From assembly GCA_003152105.1 (NCBI GenBank), contig PLZJ01000002.1, forward strand, positions 172,257 through 236,256: a stretch of DNA of 64,000 bases, written 5' to 3'. This document shows, piece by piece, positions 30,356 through 52,258 of this stretch; the first letter of the stretch is position 1; each line of letters begins with the position of its first letter. Made by a program: the position numbers and the translations under genes. A model generated the notes under the pieces. The model saw only the letters and a list, made by a program, of their open reading frames with translations. It ran no database searches and had not been told where the DNA came from. The stretch comes from Candidatus Levyibacteriota bacterium. Lineage in GTDB: Bacteria > Patescibacteriota > Microgenomatia > Levybacterales > UBA12049.

Positions 30356-30383
30356 GTTTCTAACATCCTCTACTCCTGCGAGC
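30356..30383 (+). repeat. cassette-boundary repeat R1
   Basis: GTTTCTAACATCCTCTACTCCTGCGAGC. Confidence 0.8.
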
Positions 30384-30400
30384 TTTTATTTGGATACTTA

Positions 30401-30781
30401 TTACACAGTCTTTTGTAATATTATCAGAGGTGCTTTACCTAGTCTTTCTTCAGCTATATCGGCGAACCTTCTGCTTCTCTCCAAGACTGAAAGTGAATCA
30501 TTTCCAATATCGGTACTAAGTATATAGCCAGCTTGAGTTAGATTAATAGGTTCTTGATCTTCTCCTACTTCTCGTTCTTCTACAACTTTAGCCTCTATTC
30601 CAACCTCATTACCATAATGTACATAATCTATGGCTACATGATAAGACATCCTTATGGTCCTTGCAGTTTCTTCATCAACTAATTCTTTTGTTCCAGATGT
30701 CAAATCGATTTTATCAATAGGTCCCTCAAAGAAGTCTGGCGAATAGATAGATCTATAATATTGGGTTTCAGCATGACTCAT
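30401..30781 (-). CDS. cassette gene: hypothetical protein
   Basis: ORF between R1 and R2; TATAAT 8 nt upstream of its ATG. Confidence 0.45.
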   Translation of the reverse strand: MSHAETQYYRSIYSPDFFEGPIDKIDLTSGTKELVDEETARTIRMSYHVAIDYVHYGNEVGIEAKVVEEREVGEDQEPINLTQAGYILSTDIGNDSLSVLERSRRFADIAEERLGKAPLIILQKTV

Positions 30782-30808
30782 ATAATTGCAGTATTATACC
30801 ATGAGACA

Positions 30809-30835
30809 AGTTCTAACATCCTCCACTCCTGCGAG
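30809..30835 (+). repeat. cassette-boundary repeat R2
   Basis: GTTCTAACATCCTCCACTCCTGCGAGC. Confidence 0.85.
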
Positions 30836-30876
30836 CAATATTAGTGTTAAATTAGAGGAATTTATTTTTCAAGAAG

Positions 30877-31521
30877 TTATTGATAGCCTTCCCAATGGCC
30901 ATCTGAAAATCCTCTAATCCTAGGATGTGTTGAGAATTTATACCCCTCTTGATAGTAAAAATTTAAATCACACCAAAATACTATTTCGGAATTATGATTA
31001 ATATAGTAATACCCATTTCTTAATGCCTTTACAGTCCATCCTGAACTTGCCATCGTCGAAGTATTTGAATTATTTCCATCACAGACAAGACCAGGATAAT
31101 TATGTTGTCCTGTATAAGGATTTGGCCTATTAGCAAATTTAACCGTAGAGTTTTTATTATTGTAGTTAAACGCAAAATCTATTTGACTATAATTTCCTAC
31201 ATAGTTAAGGTTCAAAAAATATTTTGATGGTGGATTTGGAGTATAAGCTGAAAAATAAGTGTCATAAATATATCCAGTAGTACTTGTTTGAGATTGAGTG
31301 CTTGCACTTATTTTAGAAAAATCCATCGGTTCGCCTAGAGGAGGAAGAGATTCTTTATTGCTATTTATAGATATTGGCATAACTGTTGGTTCAAATCCTG
31401 CTGCATTTTGTTGTGTTTGGTGAGATATATTTACTCCCCACACAGTTAATGGTACCGCTACAACAAGTGCTGCAATTACTAAATAACCAAGAAAACTTGA
31501 ATTCTTCTTACTTTTAGCCAT
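30877..31521 (-). CDS. cassette gene: secreted or membrane-anchored protein
   Basis: N-terminal TM helix; Asn/Tyr-rich. Confidence 0.45.
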   Translation of the reverse strand: MAKSKKNSSFLGYLVIAALVVAVPLTVWGVNISHQTQQNAAGFEPTVMPISINSNKESLPPLGEPMDFSKISASTQSQTSTTGYIYDTYFSAYTPNPPSKYFLNLNYVGNYSQIDFAFNYNNKNSTVKFANRPNPYTGQHNYPGLVCDGNNSNTSTMASSGWTVKALRNGYYYINHNSEIVFWCDLNFYYQEGYKFSTHPRIRGFSDGHWEGYQ

Positions 31522-31578
31522 ACGCTTATACCTCTACAATAATAAATATAGGATTATATGTCAAGAGCTGAGATTAAA

Positions 31579-31606
31579 GGTTCTAACATCCTCCACTCTT
31601 GCGAGC
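31579..31606 (+). repeat. cassette-boundary repeat R3
   Basis: GGTTCTAACATCCTCCACTCTTGCGAGC. Confidence 0.85.
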
Positions 31607-31667
31607 ACCTCTTTAGCCTCAAAATAGTCTTTTTTAGCCTCACATGAGGAGAATAGGATTCGTACCC
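31607..31667 (+). repeat. long junction extension (L-type) after R3
   Basis: ACCTCTTTAGCCTCAAAATAGTCTTTTTTAGCCTCACATGAGGAGAATAGGATTCGTACC. Shares AGCCTCAAAATAGTC...TTTTAGCCTC...GAGGAGA.TAGGATT.GAAC with 6 other junctions. Confidence 0.7.
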
Positions 31668-31678
31668 TGTTTTGATAC

Positions 31679-32323
31679 TTGAATGGACTTAGTTTAAAAT
31701 TTCATATTGCATTTAAATCAAAATATACATATAATCCTAACGCTATTATGAGTGTAGAAATTACAAGACCAATTGACCCAAGATACCAAGCAAAGCTAGG
31801 TGAAGCATCTGTTCCAGGCTGGATTGGCCTAGGTGAGAGACTTCAATTGGGGAACTTAGAGCCATATAGAGTGGCAAATCAAAGGCCAAAAGAAGGAGAA
31901 GGTAAAGTAGGCTTTGTAGTTCCGTTTGAAGTGGAGGAATTAGGTAAAGGAGAGATAAGACTTGTAGAAATAGAAAGCTCACAGGAGCAAATTGATGGTA
32001 TTCCAGTAGAGCTTATAGGTGATTATGGAACAGAGTATGGAGTTTTTATAACTTTAAATGAAGTGGGTTTTCCTCAAGTTCCAGAAGTTTGGCTATATCA
32101 TCCTCATAGACCAAGATTTATTGCAGAAGTTCGGACTGATAAAACTGACGACCCACTTGTAAAAACAGCTAATGTTGACAATATTTGGAAAGATATAGAT
32201 GATATAAGTCGTAAACTTGCAATTAGAGAATCTGATCTTCCACTTATAATGTTTGGAATACAACAAGAATGGTCAACCGACACAACAACTCCTGGTAAAA
32301 AACCTCAAATGTGGCAAGACTAA
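31679..32323 (+). CDS. cassette gene: hypothetical protein
   Basis: ORF between R3 and R4. Confidence 0.45.
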   Translation: MNGLSLKFHIAFKSKYTYNPNAIMSVEITRPIDPRYQAKLGEASVPGWIGLGERLQLGNLEPYRVANQRPKEGEGKVGFVVPFEVEELGKGEIRLVEIESSQEQIDGIPVELIGDYGTEYGVFITLNEVGFPQVPEVWLYHPHRPRFIAEVRTDKTDDPLVKTANVDNIWKDIDDISRKLAIRESDLPLIMFGIQQEWSTDTTTPGKKPQMWQD

Positions 32324-32335
32324 GTGAATAACCAT

Positions 32336-32362
32336 GTTCTAACTTCCTCCACTCCTGCGAGC
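32336..32362 (+). repeat. cassette-boundary repeat R4
   Basis: GTTCTAACTTCCTCCACTCCTGCGAGC. Confidence 0.85.
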
Positions 32363-32438
32363 TTTTTCATACAAAACTTATAAATTAATTAACTATCTTG
32401 ATGTTAACATTGTTTCTGCTATACTTATTTATCAAATT

Positions 32439-32774
32439 ATGAATCCAGAATTTGAGTTCAATAGACAGGTAGCCATAAATAAGGAAGCATTAAAGCAAGG
32501 AATTACTCTTGAAGATAAATTAAAACAAGTTATAAAAGTTGGGGAAGGTGAGCAAAACCCAAACATGCGCTTAGATGATCCATATATAGTTATAGGTGCG
32601 TTAGGCGTACGCAATGGAAGTATGTGTATATTTGGAACATTTCAAACTGTAGAAGAAGCTTTAGACTTTAGGACAATACTACGTGTTAGAGAAGATCAAT
32701 TAGTTACCGATGGACAAACCGAAAGAATGGCAGTATTTGCCTGTAATAGAAAAGGATTCTTACTTATTGATTAA
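32439..32774 (+). CDS. cassette gene: hypothetical protein
   Basis: ORF between R4 and R5. Confidence 0.45.
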   Translation: MNPEFEFNRQVAINKEALKQGITLEDKLKQVIKVGEGEQNPNMRLDDPYIVIGALGVRNGSMCIFGTFQTVEEALDFRTILRVREDQLVTDGQTERMAVFACNRKGFLLID

Positions 32775-32777
32775 AAT

Positions 32778-32805
32778 AGGGTTCTAATTTCGTAAGTTCC
32801 AGAAC
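32778..32805 (+). repeat. degenerate repeat remnant
   Basis: GGGTTCTAATTTCGTAAGTTCCAGAAC; only the 5' GGTTCTAA part is conserved. Confidence 0.35.
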
Positions 32806-32837
32806 TAAATTTACCACTTTAGAGGCAAAAAGATATA

Positions 32838-32863
32838 TTCTAACAACCTCCACTCCTTTGAGC
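32838..32863 (+). repeat. cassette-boundary repeat R5
   Basis: TTCTAACAACCTCCACTCCTTTGAGC. Confidence 0.75.
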
Positions 32864-32869
32864 AGCAAA

Positions 32870-33775
32870 TCAATTATATTTTATTTCATCTAATACTTCT
32901 GCTACTTTCATAGGACTATGCCATGCAGTATCTCCATGATCTTCAATGCGATAAATAATTGATAACATAGTTTGTACAAAACTCCATTGTAAAATTCTAT
33001 TTCTTTCAAAGTTTAATTCATCAGCAAGTATTTCTATACGTTTAATTAATATTTCTTTAAGGTTTGTTTTTTTTGCCAGAGTAGGATACGGATTTCGCAT
33101 CATAGCTCCTGTTTCAAAACATGGATCTCCAACAATTCCATTTGGATCAATTGCGAGCCACCCTTCACGATCAGATGATAAGATATTACCCTGGTGTAAA
33201 TCACCATGCATAACAACTATATTTGACGTAGAGCTAATTAAACCATTTAGCATAAATTCAGTCTTATCTAGTAAATATAGAGAGAGTGGGTTATTAGATC
33301 CAGAAAATCTTTTTTTATATTTAGGTATATGACTAGAAAGCTCTGATACAAGTTTAAAATCATGTTTTTCTGGAACTTTTCTACTAATTCTTTTTATTAT
33401 CGAAGCTAGGATTTTGGTTTGTGTTTCATCCTCACTAAGTTTATTTAATCTTTTGCCAGGTACAGCTTGTTCAAGTAGCATTGTCATATTTTCATCATTG
33501 CTACTTATCAAATTTATGCTACCTTCACCATTAAAAAGTTTTAATGCTGCAACTTCTGATAAATAGCCCTCGTTACCTGGGAAATCTATTTTTATTACTA
33601 ACTTATCTCCAGTATTTCTAGTTGCTGGAGCTACATAGTTGTATGACAAATCATAGGGTTTTCCTATTTTTAAATTCCAATCTTTTTCAAAATATGTTAA
33701 CAGATTTGGTATATTATCTAACCATTCTTGTCCTCCAGTACGATTTTTTATGTCGTGTAAAAAATTCTGGTTCAT
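32870..33775 (-). CDS. cassette gene: aminoglycoside/small-molecule phosphotransferase (APH) family kinase
   Basis: Catalytic loop HGDLHQGNIL and IDPNG...GDPCFE, typical of the APH/choline kinase fold. Confidence 0.6.
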   Translation of the reverse strand: MNQNFLHDIKNRTGGQEWLDNIPNLLTYFEKDWNLKIGKPYDLSYNYVAPATRNTGDKLVIKIDFPGNEGYLSEVAALKLFNGEGSINLISSNDENMTMLLEQAVPGKRLNKLSEDETQTKILASIIKRISRKVPEKHDFKLVSELSSHIPKYKKRFSGSNNPLSLYLLDKTEFMLNGLISSTSNIVVMHGDLHQGNILSSDREGWLAIDPNGIVGDPCFETGAMMRNPYPTLAKKTNLKEILIKRIEILADELNFERNRILQWSFVQTMLSIIYRIEDHGDTAWHSPMKVAEVLDEIKYN

Positions 33776-33804
33776 AGCTACAAGTATATCATTCCCAGAA
33801 TCTG

Positions 33805-33832
33805 GGTTCTTACGTCCTCAACGCCTGCGAGC
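33805..33832 (+). repeat. cassette-boundary repeat R6
   Basis: GGTTCTTACGTCCTCAACGCCTGCGAGC. Confidence 0.75.
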
Positions 33833-33875
33833 TTAAATATTTGTAAAAGTTAATAACATATGATAATATCCACGC

Positions 33876-34235
33876 ATGACTGAATTTGAACCTATACCCG
33901 GCAATGAGCCTCAAGTTGAACCAACCCTTGAGGATTTATTAATATCAAGAAAAGCTATATCTTGTCAAATACCTCAATCTGAGCTTATTGATTATACCCA
34001 GGCAGGAGAAAAAACAGGTACTACTGTAACAATTATTGCACAGCAAGGAGAAATGTTTAAACACTATAACAGCGGTAAAAGATGGAATTTGGAACCTATT
34101 TGGGGAGAACATCTCATACATGAGCAAGAAGGAATAGAAGATGTAAGGGTATCTGAAGGAAATATTGCGATTGCTATTCAAAGATCCCAGGACAATAATG
34201 ATCTTGGAGCTTTTTGGAGAAAATTAAAAGCATAA
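33876..34235 (+). CDS. cassette gene: hypothetical protein
   Basis: ORF between R6 and R7. Confidence 0.45.
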   Translation: MTEFEPIPGNEPQVEPTLEDLLISRKAISCQIPQSELIDYTQAGEKTGTTVTIIAQQGEMFKHYNSGKRWNLEPIWGEHLIHEQEGIEDVRVSEGNIAIAIQRSQDNNDLGAFWRKLKA

Positions 34236-34238
34236 AAC

Positions 34239-34265
34239 GTTCTAACATCCTCCACTCCAGCAAGC
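34239..34265 (+). repeat. cassette-boundary repeat R7
   Basis: GTTCTAACATCCTCCACTCCAGCAAGC. Confidence 0.8.
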
Positions 34266-34325
34266 AACTATCCAGCCTCAAATTAGTCTTTTTTAGCATT
34301 GCTTGAGAAAAGTAGAATAAGAACC
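34266..34325 (+). repeat. long junction extension (L-type) after R7
   Basis: AACTATCCAGCCTCAAATTAGTCTTTTTTAGCATTGCTTGAGAAAAGTAGAATAAGAACC. Confidence 0.65.
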
Positions 34326-34346
34326 TTAGTTTGATATACTAGTCTT

Positions 34347-34772
34347 ATGAAAAACACAATTTTTCTTGCCTCAAGCATGGATTTCTACAAAGAACTAGTT
34401 GAAATTGAAAAGCAATTGGAGTTAAAAGGATTTAAAGTAGATATTCCATATTCTGCTCAAACAATGAAGAAAAATAATGATTTTGAGGTTGCACACTTTA
34501 AAGGAGTTTTTACACATAAACAAAAAGGAGGATTTATTCATAGTAATTTTGATAAGATTGCTAAATCTGATTCACTTTTAGTTATTAATAATGATAAAAA
34601 GGGAATTAAGGGATATATTGGTACAAATGTACTGATGGAAATAGCAATTGCATTTTACTTTAAGAAAAATATTTATATTTTGAACCCAATTGAAGATAAC
34701 GCATCATTTACAGAAGAATTATTCGCTTTTGGAGTCAAGTTTATTAATGGAGACTTAGATAATGTTAGTTAA
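34347..34772 (+). CDS. cassette gene: hypothetical protein
   Basis: ORF between R7 and R8; GATATACT promoter-like box upstream. Confidence 0.45.
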   Translation: MKNTIFLASSMDFYKELVEIEKQLELKGFKVDIPYSAQTMKKNNDFEVAHFKGVFTHKQKGGFIHSNFDKIAKSDSLLVINNDKKGIKGYIGTNVLMEIAIAFYFKKNIYILNPIEDNASFTEELFAFGVKFINGDLDNVS

Positions 34773-34779
34773 GTAATAT

Positions 34780-34806
34780 GTTCTAATTTCCTCCACTCCT
34801 GCGAGC
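34780..34806 (+). repeat. cassette-boundary repeat R8
   Basis: GTTCTAATTTCCTCCACTCCTGCGAGC. Confidence 0.85.
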
Positions 34807-34818
34807 AAATTTATCTAG

Positions 34819-35448
34819 TTGACAACCTTTCAATTGTTATTCATATTATTAATAATGCCAAAGTTTAAATCAAAAAGTACAAATAAAAAAGGCTCTTATG
34901 ATCTATTTAATAAACACAAAAATCTTAAATGGTTAATCCCTATTTTAATTTTAGCTTTTCTTTTTCTGCTTTTTGTTCATCATGCCAGAGAAGAACTGGG
35001 AGTTAATATGGATACTTCAGTATATATATCTCACAATAAACAATTAAACGTAGCAAACTGGCAAACATATACAGATTTAACTAATGGTTTTAGTTTTAAA
35101 TATCCAGATAATTGGATTAAAGTTGATGATCCTACAACTGAAAATGGACCACAGGTTAGTTTTTTTCTTAAAACTGACCCTCAAATAGTTACTACAGAAA
35201 CTATTAATGGTACTGAACAGCTTATGTTAAATGTTGTGCCTGATTCTGATACCATACAAAGTTTACTACAAGAATTCCCTCACTATATAAATATTAATGG
35301 CAAGGAAGCAGCATGTGACGTATCTCCTACTAAAATATACTGTAATGTAAAACTTAATAAATCAACGCTATTAATATTACAAAGTCCTCGTTCCGATGGA
35401 GTTAAAAATTTTGCACTTATAACAACTTCGTTTATTTTTAGTCACTAA
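34819..35448 (+). CDS. cassette gene: membrane-anchored extracytoplasmic protein
   Basis: N-terminal TM helix (LIPILILAFLFLLFV). Confidence 0.45.
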   Translation: MTTFQLLFILLIMPKFKSKSTNKKGSYDLFNKHKNLKWLIPILILAFLFLLFVHHAREELGVNMDTSVYISHNKQLNVANWQTYTDLTNGFSFKYPDNWIKVDDPTTENGPQVSFFLKTDPQIVTTETINGTEQLMLNVVPDSDTIQSLLQEFPHYININGKEAACDVSPTKIYCNVKLNKSTLLILQSPRSDGVKNFALITTSFIFSH

Positions 35449-35455
35449 TTTGACA

Positions 35456-35483
35456 GATTCTAACGTACTCCACTCCTGCGAGC
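35456..35483 (+). repeat. cassette-boundary repeat R9
   Basis: GATTCTAACGTACTCCACTCCTGCGAGC. Confidence 0.85.
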
Positions 35484-35487
35484 TTCA

Positions 35488-35847: not shown

Positions 35848-35888
35848 AAACTCTATTATATAACTTCTTATTAAACAATCAAGTAATA

Positions 35889-35916
35889 GGTTCTAACGTC
35901 CTCCTTTCCTGCGAGC
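35889..35916 (+). repeat. cassette-boundary repeat R10
   Basis: GGTTCTAACGTCCTCCTTTCCTGCGAGC. Confidence 0.85.
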
Positions 35917-35976
35917 AACTACTCAGCCTCAAAATAGTCTTTTTTAGCATCTCTGGAGGAGACTAGGATTAGAAAC
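35917..35976 (+). repeat. long junction extension (L-type) after R10
   Basis: AACTACTCAGCCTCAAAATAGTCTTTTTTAGCATCTCTGGAGGAGACTAGGATTAGAAAC. Its right arm is an inverted imperfect copy of GTTCTAACGTCCTCC. Confidence 0.7.
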
Positions 35977-35995
35977 TTCTGATATAATACACCTC

Positions 35996-36415: not shown

Positions 36416-36417
36416 CG

Positions 36418-36445
36418 GGTTCTAACGTCCTCCACTCCTGCAAAC
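36418..36445 (+). repeat. cassette-boundary repeat R11 (3' end diverged)
   Basis: GGTTCTAACGTCCTCCACTCCTGCAAAC. Confidence 0.8.
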
Positions 36446-36454
36446 TCAACAAAT

Positions 36455-36490: not shown

Positions 36491-36497
36491 CTTAGTA

Positions 36498-37046: not shown

Positions 37047-37070
37047 AAAAGTATTGTAGCATAATATGTA

Positions 37071-37094
37071 TTAACACCCTCCACTCCTGCGAGC
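37071..37094 (+). repeat. cassette-boundary repeat R12 (5' end degenerate)
   Basis: TTAACACCCTCCACTCCTGCGAGC. Confidence 0.75.
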
Positions 37095-37154
37095 AACTAT
37101 CTAGCCTCAAAACAGTCATTTTTAGCCTCGTTGGAGGAGACTAGATTAGAACCT
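37095..37154 (+). repeat. long junction extension (L-type) after R12
   Basis: AACTATCTAGCCTCAAAACAGTCATTTTTAGCCTCGTTGGAGGAGACTAGATTAGAACC. Confidence 0.7.
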
Positions 37155-37684: not shown

Positions 37685-37722
37685 AATCATTAGGTATATA
37701 ATTAGCCTACATTAACGGAATT

Positions 37723-37749
37723 GTTCTAACATCCCCAACTCCTGCGAGC
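37723..37749 (+). repeat. cassette-boundary repeat R13
   Basis: GTTCTAACATCCCCAACTCCTGCGAGC. Confidence 0.8.
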
Positions 37750-38122: not shown

Positions 38123-38150
38123 GTTCTAACATTTCTCCACTCCTGTGAGC
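38123..38150 (+). repeat. cassette-boundary repeat R14
   Basis: GTTCTAACATTTCTCCACTCCTGTGAGC. Confidence 0.8.
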
Positions 38151-38873: not shown

Positions 38874-38901
38874 GGTTCCAACATCCTCCACTCCTGCGAG
38901 C
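38874..38901 (+). repeat. cassette-boundary repeat R15
   Basis: GGTTCCAACATCCTCCACTCCTGCGAGC. Confidence 0.85.
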
Positions 38902-39569: not shown

Positions 39570-39600
39570 TTACCATATTCAAATTCTAAAATAAAGATAA

Positions 39601-39627
39601 GTTCTAAAGTACTCCACTCCTGCGAGC
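39601..39627 (+). repeat. cassette-boundary repeat R16
   Basis: GTTCTAAAGTACTCCACTCCTGCGAGC. Confidence 0.85.
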
Positions 39628-40494: not shown

Positions 40495-40522
40495 GGTTCT
40501 AACGTCCTCCACTCCTGCGAGC
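40495..40522 (+). repeat. cassette-boundary repeat R17
   Basis: GGTTCTAACGTCCTCCACTCCTGCGAGC (exact consensus). Confidence 0.9.
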
Positions 40523-41025: not shown

Positions 41026-41083
41026 ATGTTTTAACTTAGTGGGTTCTCAAACGAATCGCACCAATATGCAAACAATAAAGTTT

Positions 41084-41195
41084 TAACTTGCATCTTCTTT
41101 ATCTCCTCCCACCTCTGTCTAAGTTCTCCAAAGTAGCGTAAATCCTGGAACACAAGGATAATTGAGGTCAAATCTACGGTTATAATAAGATAAGG
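41084..41195 (+). repeat. element C copy 1 (about 110 nt conserved non-coding module)
   Basis: AACTTGCATCTTCTTTATCTCCTCCCACCTCTGTCTAAGTTCTCCAAAGTAGCGTAAATCCTGGAACAC...GGTTATAATAAGAT; second copy at 49855-49960 with about 75 percent identity. Confidence 0.5.
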
Positions 41196-41269
41196 CTCGG
41201 GGAGCTGGGTAGGATGATTAGTTTAGCTTCGTTTAACAACCCAAATTATTGATTTGATATAATCTTTTA

Positions 41270-41914
41270 ATGATTCTTTTTATTGGTGGACCACCTAGAG
41301 TAGGCAAAGGAGTTTTAACAAGAAATTTAAGTAAAAAACTTGGAATTCCATATATTTCTACTGACGCACTCCGTCAAGCAGCTAGAGAACTTCCTGCAAT
41401 ACCCAAAACCGACAATTTATTTAAATCAGAACCCCTAGGTGAAGGAGATAACCAAGAAGAATTTTTCAATAATACAAAGGTAGAAGATATTATTGATTTT
41501 CAAAATAAGGAATCTGAAGAAGTAGCAAGACTTGTTAAGGGTATAGTAGGATATTTCAGTTGGAGTAAAGAGCATTACATCATAGAAGGGGTAGCACTTT
41601 TACCTCGATATTATACCTCAGAATTTATCAAGGAAAATAATATTATCTTTATAGCTGTTGGAAATACTAATTTTGACACATTTTTTAAATTTTCATGGGA
41701 CCATAGAGTTAATGGCGATTGGTTAGGAAAGACAAGTAAGGAAGCATTTGAAAAAGTAATTAAATTTAGTGCTGAATTCAGTAAAATCTTCCAAAATGAA
41801 GCCAATAAGTTTGGCTATCCATATTATGAAGTTAATTCAAAAGATTTTAATAACCATATGACAACTATAACTGAGGAAATTGTAAAGAAGATTAGAAATA
41901 TAGATAGGTTCTAA
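41270..41914 (+). CDS. cassette gene: P-loop NTPase / kinase
   Basis: Walker A GGPPRVGKGV; the stop TAA lies inside R18. Confidence 0.5.
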   Translation: MILFIGGPPRVGKGVLTRNLSKKLGIPYISTDALRQAARELPAIPKTDNLFKSEPLGEGDNQEEFFNNTKVEDIIDFQNKESEEVARLVKGIVGYFSWSKEHYIIEGVALLPRYYTSEFIKENNIIFIAVGNTNFDTFFKFSWDHRVNGDWLGKTSKEAFEKVIKFSAEFSKIFQNEANKFGYPYYEVNSKDFNNHMTTITEEIVKKIRNIDRF

Positions 41915-41933
41915 CATCCTCCACTCCTGCGGC
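41907..41933 (+). repeat. cassette-boundary repeat R18
   Basis: GGTTCTAACATCCTCCACTCCTGCGGC. Confidence 0.85.
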
Positions 41934-42039
41934 ACGATAATGTAACATCAAGATAAGCCCTTTGTATTAATCTAAATGAAATATTTGAACCTTCTAGAAA
42001 CTTCTTAAAGTTTAGTTTAGTATGTTATACTAACAGATA

Positions 42040-42794: not shown

Positions 42795-42872
42795 GGTTCT
42801 AAATTGAATCACACCATTTAAAAGTTAATAACTACTTAATTTTCCAAGCTCTATAATCCTCCACACTGCGAG
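42795..42872 (+). repeat. split or degenerate repeat (GGTTCTAA ... about 55 nt ... ATCCTCCACACTGCGAG)
   Basis: Both halves of the consensus present but separated. Confidence 0.4.
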
Positions 42873-42919
42873 TTTGATAGGATTGTAAATTTAGCCTCAT
42901 TTTACAATCTATTTATTGA

Positions 42920-44854: not shown

Positions 44855-44882
44855 GCTTCTAATGTCTGCCACTCCTGCGAGC
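44855..44882 (+). repeat. cassette-boundary repeat R20
   Basis: GCTTCTAATGTCTGCCACTCCTGCGAGC. Confidence 0.75.
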
Positions 44883-45460: not shown

Positions 45461-45466
45461 ATGCCA

Positions 45467-45494
45467 GGTTCTAACTTCCTCCACTGCTGCGAGC
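45467..45494 (+). repeat. cassette-boundary repeat R21
   Basis: GGTTCTAACTTCCTCCACTGCTGCGAGC. Confidence 0.85.
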
Positions 45495-46136: not shown

Positions 46137-46140
46137 TTAA

Positions 46141-46167
46141 GTTTTAACTCCCTCCACCCCTGCGAGC
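46141..46167 (+). repeat. cassette-boundary repeat R22
   Basis: GTTTTAACTCCCTCCACCCCTGCGAGC. Confidence 0.75.
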
Positions 46168-46274
46168 TGAACTATTGACAAGTCAATCAAAGATATGCAA
46201 TCATAAACATGCTGAAAGCAATGGAATGGGTCTTCTAAATACTGGGAATAATTCTACTTGCATCTTTTGTTGGA

Positions 46275-46400: not shown

Positions 46401-46402
46401 AT

Positions 46403-46588: not shown

Positions 46589-46616
46589 GGTTCTAACGTC
46601 CTCCACTCCTGCGAGC
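46589..46616 (+). repeat. cassette-boundary repeat R23
   Basis: GGTTCTAACGTCCTCCACTCCTGCGAGC (exact consensus). Confidence 0.9.
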
Positions 46617-46677
46617 AACTACCTAGCCTCAAAATAGTCATTTTTAGCCTTGTTAGAGGAGATTAGGATTCGAACCT
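46617..46677 (+). repeat. long junction extension (L-type) after R23
   Basis: AACTACCTAGCCTCAAAATAGTCATTTTTAGCCTTGTTAGAGGAGATTAGGATTCGAACCT; its reverse complement CTTAGGTTCGAATCCTAATCTCCTC resembles the tRNA T-arm/acceptor 3' end. Confidence 0.7.
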
Positions 46678-46697
46678 AAGTTTGGTATACTACAAAA

Positions 46698-47261: not shown

Positions 47262-47262
47262 C

Positions 47263-47289
47263 GTTCTAACTTCCTCCACTCCTGCGAGC
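47263..47289 (+). repeat. cassette-boundary repeat R24
   Basis: GTTCTAACTTCCTCCACTCCTGCGAGC. Confidence 0.85.
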
Positions 47290-47304
47290 TTCAATTAGCC
47301 AAAT

Positions 47305-47337
47305 AAAACTCACTGATATAGTTAACCAGAGGGAGCT
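47305..47337 (+). repeat. motif B copy 2
   Basis: AAAACTCACTGATATAGTTAACCAGAGGGAGCT. Confidence 0.5.
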
Positions 47338-47385
47338 CTATAGGTAAATATTGACATGGTTATTTATGTATGTGATAGTTAGTAT

Positions 47386-48207
47386 ATGGAGTCAGATGTT
47401 AAAAAAGATAAAGTTGTCGAACCTAAGTTTATTTCAAAACATTTTAATTTTAAAAGAGTTTTGTTAGTTTTACTGGTAGTCCTTATAACTGCTTCAATTT
47501 TTAGTGCAATTGGATATCTTTTAGGAATAAGTCAGTCTTCATCAAGCATATCTATAAAGCCAGTACACGCATCTATTACTCCTGCTTTTAAAAGGCAAGG
47601 ATACAATGTAACTGAATCAATACTTCCAACACCTACTCCAGTACTTAATTTCGTACCGAATGTGCCAACAGTTACAAAACAAATCATTTCCAGTGTTGAT
47701 ACAAATGGATGGAAGACATTTTCATGTTCATTCCAGGGATCGTATAAATTTTCGGTCAAATATCCATCTCAATGGTATGTAGTTGATAATGGTGATACGT
47801 GTGGTGAAAAAGATGATCACGAAGAATTTGTGCTGAGTAATTATCCACATTCCCCTGGAGTAAATGGTTACCCAAATTATTATGCAATTGACATAGAATT
47901 TAATGCAAATGGGGGATATTTGGGTGGAGAACCTATATCTGCACAATCAACTGTAATTGATGCATTAAGTGGAAATGATTTACATATTAAAGATAATCCA
48001 GGTAAACTTCTTGAAATTGATACTACTACAATAGGTGGAAAAACTGCATACTCTTTACTAGTAGATACTAGAGTAGATGGTAAATCTAATGATCCTTGGA
48101 CTGTACTTATCCCAAATGGTTTAGTTCAATTTGACGATTTATCAGAAGTTACAGGGAATGCAGAAACTCAATTGTTTAATGCAATATTAAATTCAGTTAA
48201 ACTTTAG
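47386..48207 (+). CDS. cassette gene: membrane-anchored extracytoplasmic protein (N-terminal paralog of 38943-39569)
   Basis: Shared KHFxFxRxLLxLLxxLIxA N-terminal module. Confidence 0.5.
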   Translation: MESDVKKDKVVEPKFISKHFNFKRVLLVLLVVLITASIFSAIGYLLGISQSSSSISIKPVHASITPAFKRQGYNVTESILPTPTPVLNFVPNVPTVTKQIISSVDTNGWKTFSCSFQGSYKFSVKYPSQWYVVDNGDTCGEKDDHEEFVLSNYPHSPGVNGYPNYYAIDIEFNANGGYLGGEPISAQSTVIDALSGNDLHIKDNPGKLLEIDTTTIGGKTAYSLLVDTRVDGKSNDPWTVLIPNGLVQFDDLSEVTGNAETQLFNAILNSVKL

Positions 48208-48218
48208 TTATATAGCCA

Positions 48219-48245
48219 GGTTAAAACATTCTCCACTCTGCGATC
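48219..48245 (+). repeat. cassette-boundary repeat R25 (degenerate)
   Basis: GGTTAAAACATTCTCCACTCTGCGATC. Confidence 0.6.
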
Positions 48246-48296
48246 TCAAAAGCATATTGTAATATATGTATTTAAATAAATACGCTTTATTTAGTT

Positions 48297-49082
48297 TTAC
48301 TTATTAATTACTACTTCATCTGCTAACATAATTAATTCATTTCTAATCTGAAGGGAAAATTCATATTTGCTCATGCCCATAAAACCGAATGTATCAGGAA
48401 TACTTTCTTTTTCAGATTGTGTAGTTGAACGCGTAGTAAATGAAGGGTCAAAATTATACTTATCATCGTTTCCAACTTCATCTTCAACAATTCCAGGATC
48501 GCCTTGCCAAGGTAGAAACGCATAATGACTTTTTCCATTTGGAAACATCAGTAATTTATCTTCAGGAGAGTCAATAAATATAAAAAAGGGATAGGAATTA
48601 ACCGGATCTACTACATCAAGAATTTTTTTAGTTAGTTTTTGTGTGCCACCCGAGAAAACTAAATCATCCACCACTAGTCTTTTTGTTGGTGTCCGTGAAA
48701 TATTAAGTATCTTAATTAATTGATCTATGTTATCCGTACCAAAATGCTTATCCAAATCAGTTCTTGTTTGTATGGATTGAATTAAAGAGTTAGTATCAAT
48801 TTTCGTTTTACTATCAGTTTGAAATATTCTGGTTTTCTCATGCCCAATATTTAAAAATCTTATCTTTGGCAGAGGTTTAGTTGGATTTATAACTGTGAAT
48901 AACTTTCTGTAAAAATAAGCAAGCGGTCTAGCGCTTTTATCAAGGAAAAAAATAGTATTAACATCTTCAGAAGCCTGAACTAACTCCAACCCTCTTCTTT
49001 TAAACAGTTCTCTTTTCTCAACTATGGGAATAATTTTATACTCGCTTTGTATTGCTTCTTCGGGAATTGGTTGCTCTTCCAT
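48297..49082 (-). CDS. cassette gene: phosphoribosyltransferase (PRTase)-domain protein
   Basis: PRPP-binding signature RLVVDDLVFSGGTQ. Confidence 0.45.
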   Translation of the reverse strand: MEEQPIPEEAIQSEYKIIPIVEKRELFKRRGLELVQASEDVNTIFFLDKSARPLAYFYRKLFTVINPTKPLPKIRFLNIGHEKTRIFQTDSKTKIDTNSLIQSIQTRTDLDKHFGTDNIDQLIKILNISRTPTKRLVVDDLVFSGGTQKLTKKILDVVDPVNSYPFFIFIDSPEDKLLMFPNGKSHYAFLPWQGDPGIVEDEVGNDDKYNFDPSFTTRSTTQSEKESIPDTFGFMGMSKYEFSLQIRNELIMLADEVVINK

Positions 49083-49125
49083 AGTTCAATCCTAGTTTAT
49101 AATATATTAAAAAGTCAAACAATTT

Positions 49126-49152
49126 GTTCTAACGTCCTCCACTCCTGCGAGC
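49126..49152 (+). repeat. cassette-boundary repeat R26
   Basis: GTTCTAACGTCCTCCACTCCTGCGAGC. Confidence 0.9.
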
Positions 49153-49259
49153 AAGGTTAGATTAATGACCTAACAGACCCCATAAGCTCTGGTTATTATA
49201 ACTTCCACTTCTTACAAATAAGTTTTATAATTAGGTAAACTGGTAACAAAAGATAACTT

Positions 49260-49436
49260 ATGGACAATAAGCAAAAATCAATCATCCTAACTATTTTAGC
49301 TTGCGTCTCAGCAGCTTCCACTGCGCCCATTGCTGCAACGCCTTCAATAAAAGCAATTTTTATAGTTTTACCACTAATCCTAATGGGTATACTCCTGTTT
49401 TTTGCTGGATATTATGCTGGATTAAGTAAGAAGTGA
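49260..49436 (+). CDS. possible small membrane protein (58 aa, not in ORF track)
   Basis: MDNKQKSIILTILACVSAASTAPIAATPSIKAIFIVLPLILMGILLFFAGYYAGLSKK; two hydrophobic segments; directly upstream of 49450-49821. Confidence 0.35.
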   Translation: MDNKQKSIILTILACVSAASTAPIAATPSIKAIFIVLPLILMGILLFFAGYYAGLSKK

Positions 49437-49449
49437 AATAAATAGAAAA

Positions 49450-49821
49450 ATGAAAAGGCCAACATTTTTAACAATATGGCTCAATGTAATGCTTCTATTC
49501 TCTATTGCACTCACGGTTGATTCTCTCACATACCTTCCTATGATACGTCTTACTAAAAACTATGTTAGTCTTATTGGGATTGTGGCTGGTTTTGTGCAAA
49601 TATGGGCAGTAGTCCAGCTACTCAGATGGAGAAAGATAGGAGTTTGGCTTTTACTGTCCTCAGCAATTGTAATAATGTTTGTAACAGCTATCAATGAATT
49701 TTATCTTATATCTAATGTAGGCCAAATACTTGTCAGTATGTTAATGGTTTTAGTGGTCAATATTGTTATGTTTGGGATTTTATATTTAGCGATAAGACCG
49801 GTTTGGAAAAACTTCAAATAG
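49450..49821 (+). CDS. cassette gene: small polytopic membrane protein
   Basis: 4 TM helices. Confidence 0.45.
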   Translation: MKRPTFLTIWLNVMLLFSIALTVDSLTYLPMIRLTKNYVSLIGIVAGFVQIWAVVQLLRWRKIGVWLLLSSAIVIMFVTAINEFYLISNVGQILVSMLMVLVVNIVMFGILYLAIRPVWKNFK

Positions 49822-49854
49822 AAAACTCTAAATTGCGAAGGATTTGGATGATTG

Positions 49855-49960
49855 TAACTTCTTTATTTCCTCCCTCCTTTGTCTAAACTCCCCAAAGACG
49901 CATAAATTCTGGAAAACGCTAATAATTTGTGCGTAATTTATCGGTATAATAAGATTAGGT
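49855..49960 (+). repeat. element C copy 2
   Basis: AACTTCTTTATTTCCTCCCTCCTTTGTCTAAACTCCCCAAAGACGCATAAATTCTGGAAAACGC...GGTATAATAAGAT. Confidence 0.5.
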
Positions 49961-49968
49961 TTTGGGAA

Positions 49969-50029
49969 GCAACTACCCAGCCTCTAAATAGTCCTTTTTA
50001 GCCTCGTTGGAGGAGACTAGGAATCGAAC
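49969..50029 (+). repeat. orphan L-type extension (no preceding 27-nt repeat)
   Basis: GCAACTACCCAGCCTCTAAATAGTCCTTTTTAGCCTCGTTGGAGGAGACTAGGAATCGAAC. Confidence 0.6.
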
Positions 50030-50046
50030 TTTCTAATAAAAGTGTC

Positions 50047-50301
50047 TTAATACGGATATGGAATAAAGGGAATTGGACCTGAAAAATTATTGCTTCCTGT
50101 CACTAAATAATGAAACATCTGCATTGCTAGTAAGGCTGCTACGCAAAATGTAAGTAATGCAATCCACGGTTTAAAAGTTTGTTTGATAAAACGTATTTTT
50201 TTCTGTTTTTTATTTCGTAAAAAATAAATACCTAAAAACAATAGACTAACAATTACTACTAAAGCGATATCTGACAATATTGTTATGATTACATATGTCA
50301 T
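50047..50301 (-). CDS. cassette gene: small membrane protein
   Basis: 84 aa, 2 TM helices. Confidence 0.4.
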   Translation of the reverse strand: MTYVIITILSDIALVVIVSLLFLGIYFLRNKKQKKIRFIKQTFKPWIALLTFCVAALLAMQMFHYLVTGSNNFSGPIPFIPYPY

Positions 50302-50351
50302 TTATTTATAGTCTCAGAATTTCCGTATATATGTCAAATAATTAAATAGTA

Positions 50352-50379
50352 GGTTCTGCCACCTTCCACTCCTGCGAGC
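50352..50379 (+). repeat. cassette-boundary repeat R27
   Basis: GGTTCTGCCACCTTCCACTCCTGCGAGC. Confidence 0.75.
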
Positions 50380-50432
50380 TTATTGATAATAGCAGTTGAC
50401 ATAGTATTATTTATCTGTAACTATAGAATAGA

Positions 50433-50807
50433 ATGTTATTTCAATATTTTTTTATACTATATTTTATATTTCTATTCATTTTTTTTACTTTACAATATCC
50501 ATTAGACTATCTTTTAATGAGTGCTTTGCAAAAGGATTATCCTGAGTTATTGTCCGAATACAATATTGGTGATTTATGGTTTTTAAACAGAATGACAACG
50601 TGGAGGACATTGAAACTTACTTTTGATGACGAATTAGCTCAAAATGCAAGCGCAAAGTTAATATTGCTTATAAACATATATCGCTATAGCACACTATTAA
50701 GTTATGTAGCAATTTTTATTTTTATCTTTATAGCAATTTTAGATTCAAAAGATAGTGTCCAAGCTATTATAATTATGTTCAATTTTATCGGTATTCATAT
50801 TAAATAA
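50433..50807 (+). CDS. cassette gene: membrane protein
   Basis: 124 aa, hydrophobic N- and C-terminal segments. Confidence 0.4.
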   Translation: MLFQYFFILYFIFLFIFFTLQYPLDYLLMSALQKDYPELLSEYNIGDLWFLNRMTTWRTLKLTFDDELAQNASAKLILLINIYRYSTLLSYVAIFIFIFIAILDSKDSVQAIIIMFNFIGIHIK

Positions 50808-50810
50808 TAT

Positions 50811-50837
50811 GTTCTAACGTCCTCCACTCCTACGAGC
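50811..50837 (+). repeat. cassette-boundary repeat R28
   Basis: GTTCTAACGTCCTCCACTCCTACGAGC. Confidence 0.85.
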
Positions 50838-50846
50838 TTCAATAAT

Positions 50847-51554
50847 TTATTTAACACTATATTTAGAGTCTGTATGATTTTCCCAAAATTCCAGAAAAGA
50901 TTTACGATATTTTGGAAGTCTATGCCTACCTTTTCTCCATTCGGATTTATGGGTTAAATGTTTAATTTCTATCGAAGGAGCAAAATACGCAAGTGCATTT
51001 TCTGATGATAGAACAAAAGGAGGATAGTTTCCCTGCATATTGACCCAACTTGCAATTAAGGCGCCTGTTCTATGATTGCCATCTGATTTAAAGAGTTGTG
51101 GTTGTCCAAGTATGGCTATATATACCTCGGCTGTTATTTTTCTAAAGTCATCACCACGTTTTTTATGTCGTTTATACCAATCGGATACATATTCAACTTG
51201 ATCATAAAAATGAGCAGAAGTCTCCTTTAATGCCTGAGCGTTTTCCATTCTTAATCTATGATCATTACCATAAAGAACAATAGTGTTTAATGCAAGCATA
51301 TGATGAAGGCTTGAATCAACACAGGGTTCTACGTCTTGCAAAATAAGTTTATCTAAATACTCATAACCTATCATCATTCTTTGTCTCACTTCTGAATTAA
51401 AAGGAGGGTTTTTAGCTCCAATTTTATGTTTAGCTAATAATTCGTTAATCTCACTCCAATTATCCTGTACTGATTGGAGAGATTGATCTACTAATGCTAG
51501 GTTTAAATGCTCAGGCGTGGGTTTTAAATACTCTGACATAGGTGGATTATACAA
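50847..51554 (-). CDS. cassette gene: hypothetical protein
   Basis: ORF between R28 and R29. Confidence 0.45.
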   Translation of the reverse strand: MYNPPMSEYLKPTPEHLNLALVDQSLQSVQDNWSEINELLAKHKIGAKNPPFNSEVRQRMMIGYEYLDKLILQDVEPCVDSSLHHMLALNTIVLYGNDHRLRMENAQALKETSAHFYDQVEYVSDWYKRHKKRGDDFRKITAEVYIAILGQPQLFKSDGNHRTGALIASWVNMQGNYPPFVLSSENALAYFAPSIEIKHLTHKSEWRKGRHRLPKYRKSFLEFWENHTDSKYSVK

Positions 51555-51561
51555 CTATATA

Positions 51562-51589
51562 GGCTCTAACGTACTCCACTCCTGCGAGC
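51562..51589 (+). repeat. cassette-boundary repeat R29
   Basis: GGCTCTAACGTACTCCACTCCTGCGAGC. Confidence 0.85.
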
Positions 51590-51666
51590 TTCAGTTTGTT
51601 ACAAAACAATTGTGAGTAGCATGGTGAGGTAGAACTTATTATCTTAATGGTGTATACTGCCTTTGT

Positions 51667-51942
51667 ATGGAAAAGAATATATTAAATTATAGAATTATTA
51701 TTGAAAGGGAGAAATATGATGATAGATCTCCAGTTTATGTTGCCTATTGTCCAACACTAGGTATTTCTGACTATGGTGATACAGTTGAGGAAGTATTAGC
51801 TAGTATAAAAGATGGCATTGAACTTGCAGTAGAGTCTTTAGCAAAAGAGGGTAAAGAAGTACCTATTGATCAGGTTGAAGACCAAATAATTACTTCTACA
51901 AAAATTAATATTCCTTCAGGTTTAAAAATCTCTTATTCCTAA
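51667..51942 (+). CDS. hicB: HicB-family antitoxin (UPF0150-like)
   Basis: 91 aa; YRIIIEREKYDDRSPVYVAYCPTLGISDYGDTVEEVLASIKDGIELAVE; immediately upstream of hicA with a 1-nt gap. Confidence 0.55.
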   Translation: MEKNILNYRIIIEREKYDDRSPVYVAYCPTLGISDYGDTVEEVLASIKDGIELAVESLAKEGKEVPIDQVEDQIITSTKINIPSGLKISYS

Positions 51943-51943
51943 A

Positions 51944-52168
51944 ATGAGTAAATTACCTCGTAATGTAAAAGGGAAACAATTAATCACAGCTTTAGAGAAA
52001 CTAGGATTTAAAGTAGTAGGTAAACGAGGTAGTCATCATCGTCTTTCTCATCCTGATGGAAGATGGACTCAAGTTGCAGTACATCCTAAACCAATTCCTC
52101 AAGGAACTCTAAGAGCAATTATTCGTCAAGCAGAAATATCAGTTGAGGATTTAATCAAAATTATTTAA
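51944..52168 (+). CDS. hicA: HicA-family mRNA interferase toxin
   Basis: 74 aa; KGKQLITALEKLGFKVVGKRGSHHRLSHPDGRWTQVAVHPKPIPQGTLRAIIRQAEI matches the HicA/YcfA fold. Confidence 0.6.
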   Translation: MSKLPRNVKGKQLITALEKLGFKVVGKRGSHHRLSHPDGRWTQVAVHPKPIPQGTLRAIIRQAEISVEDLIKII

Positions 52169-52182
52169 AAACTTATCCAGAA

Positions 52183-52210
52183 GATTCTAGCATCCTCCAC
52201 TCCTGCGAGC
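52183..52210 (+). repeat. cassette-boundary repeat R30 (last)
   Basis: GATTCTAGCATCCTCCACTCCTGCGAGC. Confidence 0.85.
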
Positions 52211-52258
52211 AACTATCTAGCCTCAAAATAGTCAATTTTAGCCTCGTTGGAGGAGATG
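52211..52258 (+). repeat. truncated L-type extension (right arm lost after GGAGGAGA)
   Basis: AACTATCTAGCCTCAAAATAGTCAATTTTAGCCTCGTTGGAGGAGATG then unrelated sequence leading into a transposase gene. Confidence 0.6.

Follow-up and report, generated by a model that had tools for sequence, protein, structure and literature searches.

We analysed a 64,000-nt stretch of contig PLZJ01000002.1 from a Candidatus Levyibacteriota bacterium, a member of the candidate phyla radiation (CPR; Patescibacteriota); this whole stretch is called the window below. The window runs from the replication-origin region through housekeeping genes to dnaG, rpoD and a tRNA-Asn(GTT) gene. Among named organisms, those with the RpoD closest to that of the window are Candidatus Saccharimonadales, a CPR lineage. 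Beyond the tRNA gene lie a large serine recombinase (LSR) gene, the remainder of the element that appears to carry it, and an array of short direct repeats that alternate with small genes (Table 1). A first-pass annotation, made from the letters of the sequence, had described the array as an integron-like but non-canonical series of gene cassettes.

The repeat array and its gene units

Matching to the consensus given in that annotation, with up to three mismatches, found 22 copies of the repeat, all on the + strand, where 0 were expected from 100 shuffles. The conserved 16-nt core matched 28 times in the window, relaxed matching gave 27 copies and one more that differs by an indel, and an nhmmer search of the window with a profile built from the sites themselves returned 28 copies with significant scores, every one of them on the + strand within 30356-52211. 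The same profile search gave no significant copy in the other 42 kb of the window and none on the - strand. The reported array is therefore real and, within the window, confined to this locus, and every copy is placed in its own intergenic gap. The repeat, referred to here as the S-type site, is 27-28 nt long and has sharp conservation edges: positions 2-28 of GGTTCTAAC-N-TCCTCCACTCCTGCGAGC are nearly invariant and the flanks are not. Copy-to-copy distances range from 401 to 2948 bp, with a median of 673 bp. Neither a palindrome nor any dyad symmetry is seen in the 28-mer, which includes the anti-Shine-Dalgarno-like motif CCTCC. G+C content is about 33% and is flat over the array and its flanks.

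The window starts in the replication-origin region (dnaN, dnaA, rnpA and yidC at 1503-5845). The cumulative GC skew starts to rise at about 4 kb, the array lies just 26-48 kb from the origin, and all of the 28-mer sites are co-oriented with replication.

Several known classes of repeat were considered and rejected. A repetitive extragenic palindromic (REP) element or a miniature inverted-repeat transposable element (MITE) does not fit a non-palindromic repeat without copies on the - strand or in the 42 kb outside the array, and an 18-mer search of 185,579 representative genomes found no array, just 20 single chance matches; as far as the window shows, this is not the dispersed element that the first-pass annotation had named as the outcome that would speak against its proposal. 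Clustered regularly interspaced short palindromic repeats (CRISPR) are 23-50 nt long with short spacers, whereas here the spacing is 401-2948 bp and every interval holds an expressed-looking gene. The 28-mer was also rejected as a tRNA or other RNA gene, as ARAGORN and Rfam (at gathering and E-value thresholds) found the real tRNA-Asn and a LOOT RNA only, with nothing in the array. A 22-mer search of metagenomes recovered two true relatives of the array on unrelated contigs, L024 and L025. Searches of viral contigs gave nothing convincing, and plasmid and phage records yielded distant integrase matches but nothing closely related to the array.

Most units of the array consist of one open reading frame (ORF), and in most of them the + strand ORF stops within about 15 nt of the repeat, the range being from an 8-nt overlap to 61 nt. 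As the annotation had stated, all sites lie on the + strand despite the presence of - strand genes: 10 of the 36 ORFs are on the - strand and the sites beside them are oriented like all others, i.e. site orientation follows the array and not the gene. The degenerate or variant junctions that it had reported were also found. Those at 48219-48245, 42795-42873, 41042-41205 and 49826-50029 occupy gaps inside multi-gene units, and a possible further one lies at 29370-29397.

Pfam searches of the cassette ORFs identified an APH(6)-type kinase, two GNAT acetyltransferases, two P-loop kinase-like proteins and HicA with a weak HicB-like match, in agreement with the cargo first proposed, together with a SIMPL protein, a pyridoxal phosphate (PLP) enzyme and a DUF3147 protein. 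The phosphoribosyltransferase-like (PRTase-like) protein that had also been listed was not found in these scans. The majority of the cassette proteins have no Pfam family, and they are mutually unrelated, with just one weak paralogue pair among all cassette proteins across five loci. The member of the APH(6)/hydroxyurea-kinase family (E = 2e-31) is a cassette at 32870-33775 (- strand) in a CPR genome.

The claim that the cassettes carry their own promoters was borne out for at least 16 of the 36 ORFs. A generic sigma-70 and terminator scan was uninformative in this AT-rich DNA (76 found versus 85 expected), and a targeted test for an extended -10 box was used in its place. Sixteen ORFs, on either strand, have this box (TGNTAYAMT) 6-14 nt ahead of the start codon, compared with 1.7% of random 70-nt windows. 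We conclude that the units are self-contained; the spacing suggests that the cassette mRNAs are probably leaderless or near-leaderless. Cassettes have promoter modules in common, e.g. TTTAGCCTC...TGNTATAAT, and many + strand cassettes have the upstream module TTTAGCCTC(A/G)TT...(TTTACA) in common.

Behind six of the sites, termed L-type, comes a conserved extension of some 60 nt, which ends in an inverted, tRNA-like copy of the site start. Together, site and extension make up an imperfect palindrome of 88 nt whose ends are RYYYAAC / GTTRRRY-like. At the same offset (+50-53), two further sites have TTTGAACC. The remaining 20 of the 28 sites are without a hairpin partner, and several of these have only 13-50 nt to the next start codon. 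Folding of the L-type junctions had been proposed in the annotation as a check, and the folds proved weak for both strands and for the consensus: the hairpin beat shuffles in one of six cases, and zero to one pairs showed a compensatory change. We therefore rejected the attC hairpin as the general structure of the site, given weak folds, no covariation and the missing partner arm at most sites.

The absence of a tyrosine recombinase noted earlier was upheld, with no Phage_integrase domain among about 97 chosen window ORFs in Pfam and no match in the window to IntI1 and XerD sequences by tblastn. The insertion sequence (IS) reported at the distal end is present as well. A 342-aa-type rve transposase gene was inserted in the extension of the last site and later interrupted at codon 227 by an IS3-family element, in which orfA/orfB is frameshifted. 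The rve gene (52307-52990) was rejected as the integrase of the array, since it represents a very common 342-aa IS transposase in truncated form, one that mostly occurs on contigs of 1.1-1.5 kb. Beyond the IS pair, small stand-alone genes without 28-mers follow at 54234-57541, encoding a lycopene-cyclase-domain protein and PhnB-like, PEMT/ICMT, glyoxalase and YdeI-like proteins; this segment could be older island material minus its sites, or ordinary chromosome.

The tRNA-Asn end, the serine recombinase and related loci

A resemblance that the first-pass annotation did not note is that between the 28-mer and the 3' end of the tRNA-Asn gene at 22423-22495. End-to-end alignment of the last 30 nt of this gene with the 28-mer (GGTTCTAGGTTCGAATCCTAGTCGCGGAGC versus GGTTCTAACGTCCTCCACTCCTGCGAGC) gave a score equalled by one of 5000 shuffles, and the two have the pattern GGTTCTA...GCG(G)AGC in common. 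Read on the - strand, the L-type extension matches the tRNA T arm at 15 of 16 positions. tRNA-like variants are also present within the window's own array, and the sites of two other loci that carry relatives of the LSR, L045 and L046, have the same ...CGGAGC terminus as the tRNA, linking the tRNA sequence to the ...GCGAGC of the window. True 3' fragments of tRNA-Asn stand at junction positions in L025 and L045. The best explanation for these likenesses is that the 28-bp repeat would be an attachment-site arm resembling the last 30 nt of tRNA-Asn.

The two long variant junctions (41026-41269 and 49822-50046) have in common a core of about 110 nt with an internal TATAAT, of the form CTTCTTTAT.TCCTCCC.CCT.TGTCTAA...GGTATAATAAGAT.AGG...GGGA. 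Each looks like an insertion within a tRNA-like site.

The LSR gene lies 6.2 kb upstream of the array, on the - strand, and its last 13 nt are shared with the 3' end of the tRNA-Asn gene. The product has Resolvase (PF00239) and Recombinase (PF07508) domains, and R14-V15-S16 is invariant in 25 homologues. Its catalytic domain matches that of TP901-1 integrase (best solved-structure match, E = 3.7e-05), and the solved-structure matches are to N-terminal catalytic domains of other serine recombinases only. The protein is distantly related to the Listeria A118 and U153 integrases, the nearest phage integrases being about 24-29% identical. More than 1600 homologues were found, largely from CPR sources where these are named.

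The annotation had correctly located this gene and treated it as no more than the nearest recombinase. That description is too narrow, since the family inserts at tRNA-Asn 3' ends and a 70%-identical relative abuts a 28-mer. Seven lineages of relatives were chosen and the DNA was compared for six. The recombinase gene 3' end abuts a complete tRNA-Asn in L066 (54% identical to the window recombinase), in L067 (65%), in L068 and L070 of the L068-L070 lineage (56%; L069 is cut inside the tRNA) and in L071 and L072 of the L071-L073 lineage (57%; L073 is cut inside the tRNA). A full tRNA-Asn is thus abutted in the window and in four further lineages. In L045 (74%) the gene 3' end abuts a 23-nt tRNA-Asn fragment that ends a four-junction mini-array, and in L046 (70%) its neighbour is an S-type 28-mer, a second, identical copy of which lies one cassette away. 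The recombinase/site junctions are in register in the window and all six further lineages, and site and recombinase gene always occupy opposite strands. From this comparison we conclude that the recombinase family is specific for tRNA-Asn and that the 28-mer can replace the tRNA end. Homology on the recombinase side begins at or just after ...GAGC in all loci, and TTCA is common to many cassettes and to the recombinase arm A-W-TTCAGG; the crossover is probably at or just after ...GAGC.

The L045 mini-array consists, in order, of a tRNA-like fragment, two 28-mers (GGTTCTAAC...CTCGGAGC) and the tRNA-Asn fragment. One of its units (4191-5092) is a DUF6922/AbiEii toxin-antitoxin-type pair, parallel to the HicAB cassette of the window. 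L025 holds a 39-42 nt copy of the tRNA-Asn 3' half, one ORF, a perfect 28-mer and another ORF. This arrangement indicates that the array belongs beside tRNA-Asn, and that in the window the recombinase element lies between the two. As the tRNA 5' half is missing in L025, either the fragment is a junction within an island or the tRNA is interrupted. An HNH-type zinc-finger ORF (937-1290, - strand) lies directly upstream of it. L024, a 7.7 kb array piece from an unrelated metagenome, has eight copies of the site with an equally tight layout of stop codon and site, and has zero cassettes in common with the window. The cassettes of all four arrays, L024, L025, L045 and L046, are entirely different from those of the window, i.e. 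cassette content turns over completely between arrays. No array was found in L028 and L029, which are about 73% identical to the window in rpoD at the nucleotide level.

Two further observations were made in these loci. In L068, from a Levybacteria-like genome, a second, different LSR (619 aa) is encoded at 1-1576, at the far end of the tRNA-Asn-inserted element, which suggests tandem serine-recombinase elements at one tRNA. An IMG/VR contig (L075; 52% G+C) has the 28-mer-like sequence GGTTCTAACATCGTCCAGTTCCCGGAGC at 14696-14723 (- strand), 97 nt from its end; this sequence matches the L045 site at 22 of 28 positions, no recombinase homologue is on the contig, and the match may be chance or a prophage boundary.

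The element that carries the LSR has a - strand module with DUF5659 and small ORFs and a + strand module with a 250-aa ORF, DUF3761, DUF2321 and a Hypoth_Ymh protein. A LOOT RNA lies in the divergent intergenic region between them and overlaps the start of the 250-aa ORF at 26353. Gene order is the same as in L046 up to DUF2321, and the core of DUF5659 and recombinase also occurs in L066, L068 and L071. PHROGs searches of the element ORFs gave nothing useful, and no capsid or terminase genes were found in the Pfam and PHROGs scans. From the match in gene order to L046 we infer that the element spans 22.5 kb to about 29.4 kb, with its right end at the possible degenerate site. The best reading makes this element part of the same array, as the first unit, next to the tRNA.

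Table 1. Features of the locus, with window coordinates, strand and the basis of each assignment or a remark.
Feature	Position	Strand	Basis or remark
tRNA-Asn(GTT) gene	22423-22495	+	ARAGORN, Rfam, alignments; last 30 nt, GGTTCTAGGTTCGAATCCTAGTCGCGGAGC, are the model resembled by the array sites; left island anchor
LSR, 533 aa in public records	22483-24084	-	Pfam Resolvase + Recombinase; longest ORF reaches 24117
Putative body of recombinase-bearing integrative element	22496-29369	.	Pfam, gene order versus L046; right end inferred
LOOT RNA	26290-26408	+	Rfam RF03000, 64 bits, full length; between divergent modules of recombinase element
Possible degenerate S-type site, GATTCTAGCATATTTCTATATTGATATT	29370-29397	+	Tentative right boundary of recombinase element; read from sequence, profile search not significant
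First small unit, two ORFs (220 aa, 70 aa)	29453-30351	+	TGGTATAAT 6 nt before each start codon
Array: 28 S-type sites, ~27 units, 34 ORFs (36 with the two of 29453-30351)	30356-52211	+
S site 1	30356-30383	+	Consensus, profile search
S site 2	30809-30836	+	Consensus, profile search
S site 3, L-type	31579-31606	+	Consensus, profile search; extension 31607-31666
S site 4	32335-32362	+	Consensus, profile search
S site 5, 6 mismatches	32836-32863	+	Relaxed matching, profile search
S site 6	33805-33832	+	Consensus, profile search; TTTGAACC at +53
S site 7, L-type	34238-34265	+	Consensus, profile search; extension 34266-34325
S site 8	34779-34806	+	Consensus, profile search
S site 9	35456-35483	+	Consensus, profile search
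S site 10, L-type	35889-35916	+	Consensus, profile search; extension 35917-35976
S site 11	36418-36445	+	Consensus, profile search
S site 12, L-type	37067-37094	+	Relaxed matching, profile search; extension 37095-37153
S site 13	37722-37749	+	Consensus, profile search
S site 14, indel variant	38123-38150	+	Core match, profile search
S site 15	38874-38901	+	Consensus, profile search
S site 16	39600-39627	+	Consensus, profile search
S site 17, perfect consensus	40495-40522	+	Consensus, profile search
Long variant junction	41042-41205	+	tRNA-like GGTTCTCAAACGAATCGCACC at start, GGCTCGGGGAGC at end; ~110-nt core homologous to junction 49826-49970
S site 18, 3' end diverged	41907-41934	+	Consensus, profile search; TTTGAACC at +50
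Split/variant junction	42795-42873	+	GGTTCTAAATTGAATCACACC, ~40 nt, ATCCTCCACACTGCGAGT
S site 19	44855-44882	+	Relaxed matching, profile search
S site 20	45467-45494	+	Consensus, profile search
S site 21	46140-46167	+	Relaxed matching, profile search
S site 22, perfect consensus, L-type	46589-46616	+	Consensus, profile search; extension 46617-46676
S site 23	47262-47289	+	Consensus, profile search
Degenerate S remnant, GGTTAAAACATTCTCCACTCTGCGATC	48219-48245	+	Profile E = 0.76; between the two ORFs of a two-gene unit
S site 24	49125-49152	+	Consensus, profile search
Long variant junction, then orphan L-type extension	49826-50029	+	Extension 49971-50029 without preceding 28-mer
S site 25	50352-50379	+	Relaxed matching, profile search
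S site 26	50810-50837	+	Consensus, profile search
S site 27	51562-51589	+	Consensus, profile search
HicB-like/HicA toxin-antitoxin cassette	51667-52168	+	Pfam
S site 28, L-type	52183-52210	+	Consensus, profile search; extension 52211-52257 cut by IS
Distal IS pair	52258-54125	+	Outside cassette mechanism; rve transposase 52307-52990, IS3-family element ~53037-54125

Explanations for the array

We think it probable, though well short of certain, that the locus is a tRNA-Asn-anchored accretion array in a CPR genome whose junctions are attachment sites of an LSR-bearing element. An incoming element or cassette with a tRNA-like arm would insert at the tRNA-Asn 3' end by means of the serine recombinase. 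If the incoming arm resembles the target, the junction keeps its likeness to the target and further insertion is possible; one of the new junctions would thus still be target-like and reusable by later units. Repeated insertion of this kind would give a head-to-tail array with all sites in the same orientation, whatever the orientation of the genes. The 7 kb recombinase element would be the sole autonomous unit, and the roughly 30 small units (promoter, one gene and site), which have no recombinase, would depend on it in trans. The more specific proposal, a serine-recombinase-run platform in which promoter-bearing single-gene cassettes with a 28-bp tRNA-Asn mimic are inserted and excised singly at tRNA-Asn, is put forward tentatively as one that may hold but is not expected to. 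Both proposals suppose that the LSR acts on the 28-mers, that the cassettes are mobile and that single units are, or were, mobile as circles.

A number of observations weigh against these proposals. Recombinase relatives at 54-57% identity sit at tRNA-Asn without an array, so the array is not an automatic product of the recombinase family. Serine-integrase sites normally consist of two related half-sites around a 2-bp crossover; at the junctions studied here only the 28-mer side is conserved and there is no dyad symmetry, and an inverted copy of the recombinase-side arm was sought at the other end of the element and not found. The mismatch counts of the sites show no gradient along the array of the kind that would point to ordered growth. 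The first-pass annotation had proposed to compare related strains for cassette-level variation. Arrays at different loci differ entirely in their cassettes; within the sampled population, contigs from six sibling runs are collinear with the window in cassette order, and these six samples gave neither excision products nor circular junctions nor variants in the order of cassettes. Those cassette proteins that were looked up in a 15-billion-protein collection form singleton clusters, with no relative outside this genome at 90% identity or above; there is therefore no sign of recent circulation. Finally, the window covers 64 kb of a 1.15 Mb genome, which leaves room for a second recombinase elsewhere.

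This last point gives rise to one alternative, in which another enzyme of the genome, such as a tRNA-Asn-specific tyrosine integrase or a very divergent IntI, handles the cassettes, with the array as an orphan of the CALIN type (cluster of attC sites lacking integron-integrases), and the LSR element merely lands on tRNA-like 28-mers. The six 88-nt palindromes with their RYYYAAC / GTTRRRY-like ends, and the two additional sites with TTTGAACC, would be expected of such a system, as would cassettes of this size and diversity with toxin-antitoxin cargo, such as sedentary integrons usually contain; tyrosine integrases, for their part, typically give rise to partial tRNA duplications of about 40 nt, like the one in L025. 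We nevertheless regard this alternative as unlikely. No tyrosine recombinase was detected in the 30 kb to one side of the array or in the 12 kb to the other, 20 of the 28 sites lack a partner arm or the room for one, the hairpin is no more stable than shuffles in five of six cases and shows no compensatory changes, and the three loci with close recombinase relatives all have sites of this family beside the recombinase. A slightly better case, although still an improbable one, can be made for decay, i.e. that 7-10 kb recombinase elements inserted repeatedly at tRNA-Asn and then lost their core genes, leaving cargo and attachment arms, so that the small units were never mobile alone. Islands that were seeded by tRNA genes and contain degenerate elements and partial tRNA copies at scattered positions have been described (10.1101/2020.12.28.424599), and the multi-gene units and degenerate junctions of the window, the far-end LSR gene of L068 and the lack of observed single-unit mobility in the sibling samples are all in keeping with it. 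What decay explains poorly is tidiness: some 30 units are trimmed to a promoter and one ORF, with most + strand stop codons no more than about 15 nt from an intact 28-mer, an order that random deletion would not produce. The 28-mers are also far better conserved than their surroundings, and the Pfam scans of the array showed no recombinase or DUF5659 domain, although no direct search for fragments of element core genes was made.

Two other explanations are much less probable. The 28-mer might not be a recombination site at all, but a regulatory or RNA-level mark of gene boundaries (an insulator, operator or processing signal) in a hypervariable region. Its CCTCC, directly after + strand stop codons, and the promoter modules that cassettes have in common lend this some appeal, but the sites keep the array's orientation beside all 10 - strand ORFs. 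Moreover, the 28-mer has no Rfam match and no stable fold, is kept across arrays of unrelated genes, is interchangeable with tRNA-Asn fragments and is the insertion point of the recombinase element in L046; we consider such a role very unlikely. Least probable of all, if only slightly more so, is a dif-like site recombined by a host XerC/D-type enzyme, as in the Acinetobacter pdif modules and the integrative mobile elements exploiting Xer (IMEX). The length of 28 bp is that of dif, and modules bounded by short sites without a recombinase of their own are what such elements look like. The consensus, however, lacks two inverted 11-bp arms around a 6-bp centre (three of 14 positions match the reverse complement), for which reason Xer/dif modules were rejected as a class. 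The sites are without exception direct repeats, unlike those of pdif modules, whose orientation alternates, and the site resembles a tRNA end and not dif, in an array near oriC (dnaA, 2855-4228) and not the terminus.

To our knowledge, integrons are the only system so far that stores single genes as individually mobile cassettes, for which they need a specialised tyrosine recombinase and folded attC sites. A literature search for integrons or serine-recombinase cassette arrays in Saccharibacteria and Patescibacteria found nothing relevant. If the more specific proposal, a serine-recombinase analogue of the integron, holds, there would be a second, independently evolved route to cassette arrays, by way of a serine recombinase, a double-strand 28-bp site like a tRNA end and cassettes with their own promoters; cassette storage would then be a convergent solution and not a one-off. 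Ultra-small CPR genomes would have a dedicated, expandable store of accessory genes. This would bear on how CPR bacteria, whose genomes measure about 1 Mb and have few recognised mobile elements, gain and retain accessory genes, among them those for aminoglycoside-kinase-like proteins, acetyltransferases, toxin-antitoxin pairs and many secreted or membrane orphans. Genome engineers, too, would be interested in a serine integrase whose site is short and well defined, at 28 bp, and which naturally stacks many cassettes. Even as a plain accretion island, the locus would be an unusually clean record of some 30 successive site-specific acquisitions.

Comparison with known systems

The array shares much with integron arrays, both sedentary ones and CALINs: a long series of small, mostly single-gene, unrelated units in mixed orientation, one directional site per unit directly after the ORF, and toxin-antitoxin, acetyltransferase and aminoglycoside-kinase-type cargo among many ORFs without a known family. 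This architecture, from which the first-pass annotation argued, stands. Membership of the family, as a 'highly divergent integron', is not supported, whereas its other suggestion, a form of cassette capture not described before, may hold. Integrons have IntI, attI and a common promoter (Pc), and the window array has none of these. Their attC sites are imperfect inverted repeats of 57-141 nt (R''-L''...L'-R') that fold on one strand; here the site is of a 28-bp double-strand type, like a tRNA end, and mostly unpaired, with an inverted partner in six to eight of the 28 copies. Integron cassettes are mostly promoterless and expressed from Pc, in contrast to the cassettes with their own promoters found here, which moreover have an associated LSR and a CPR host. 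The annotation's own reservations (a short repeat, no IntI, own promoters) were therefore well placed: of the integron hallmarks looked for in the window, the single-orientation array of unrelated cassettes was found, and IntI, attC and promoterless cassettes were not.

Two marks of an LSR element, namely the recombinase domains and a recombinase gene next to a conserved, specific insertion site, are present. The phage LSRs of A118, U153 and TP901-1 likewise combine Resolvase and Recombinase domains and the R-V-S motif with an integrase gene beside the attachment site. They differ in being only 24-29% identical, and the elements considered here are small, lack capsid and terminase genes and have one conserved junction arm.

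Closer parallels are found among islands that grow in tandem. In the staphylococcal cassette chromosome (SCC) islands, Ccr LSRs insert at the 3' end of rlmH and give tandem units, some of them without a recombinase. As here, an LSR is carried on one unit, insertion is at the 3' end of a conserved gene and the units are bounded by direct repeats of the insertion site. SCC differs in its target, rlmH and not tRNA-Asn, and in units of 3-60 kb, compared with about 30 single-gene units of 0.4-3 kb. The window LSR also has no Ccr orthology, its structure matches being to the catalytic domains of other serine recombinases.

An island directly downstream of a tRNA gene is likewise found in the window, with units split by sites that align with the tRNA 3' end; in L025 and L045 true tRNA fragments form junctions. 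Tycheposons form tRNA-seeded islands in which successive insertions push older elements outward, leaving partial tRNAs, and a minority of them use an LSR (10.1101/2020.12.28.424599). In these islands, as in cis-mobilizable elements (CIMEs) next to integrative and conjugative elements (ICEs), a tRNA gene seeds the island and partial tRNA copies split its units. Tycheposon and CIME units are, however, multi-gene elements or irregular remnants bounded by literal tRNA copies, whereas the window has about 30 regular, promoter-bearing single-gene units with a dedicated 28-bp tRNA-like site, in a CPR lineage. Our best reading of these comparisons is that the array is integron-like in form, and that its logic is probably nearest to tandem accretion at a tRNA or housekeeping-gene site, as in SCC islands and tycheposons, and not to that of an integron.

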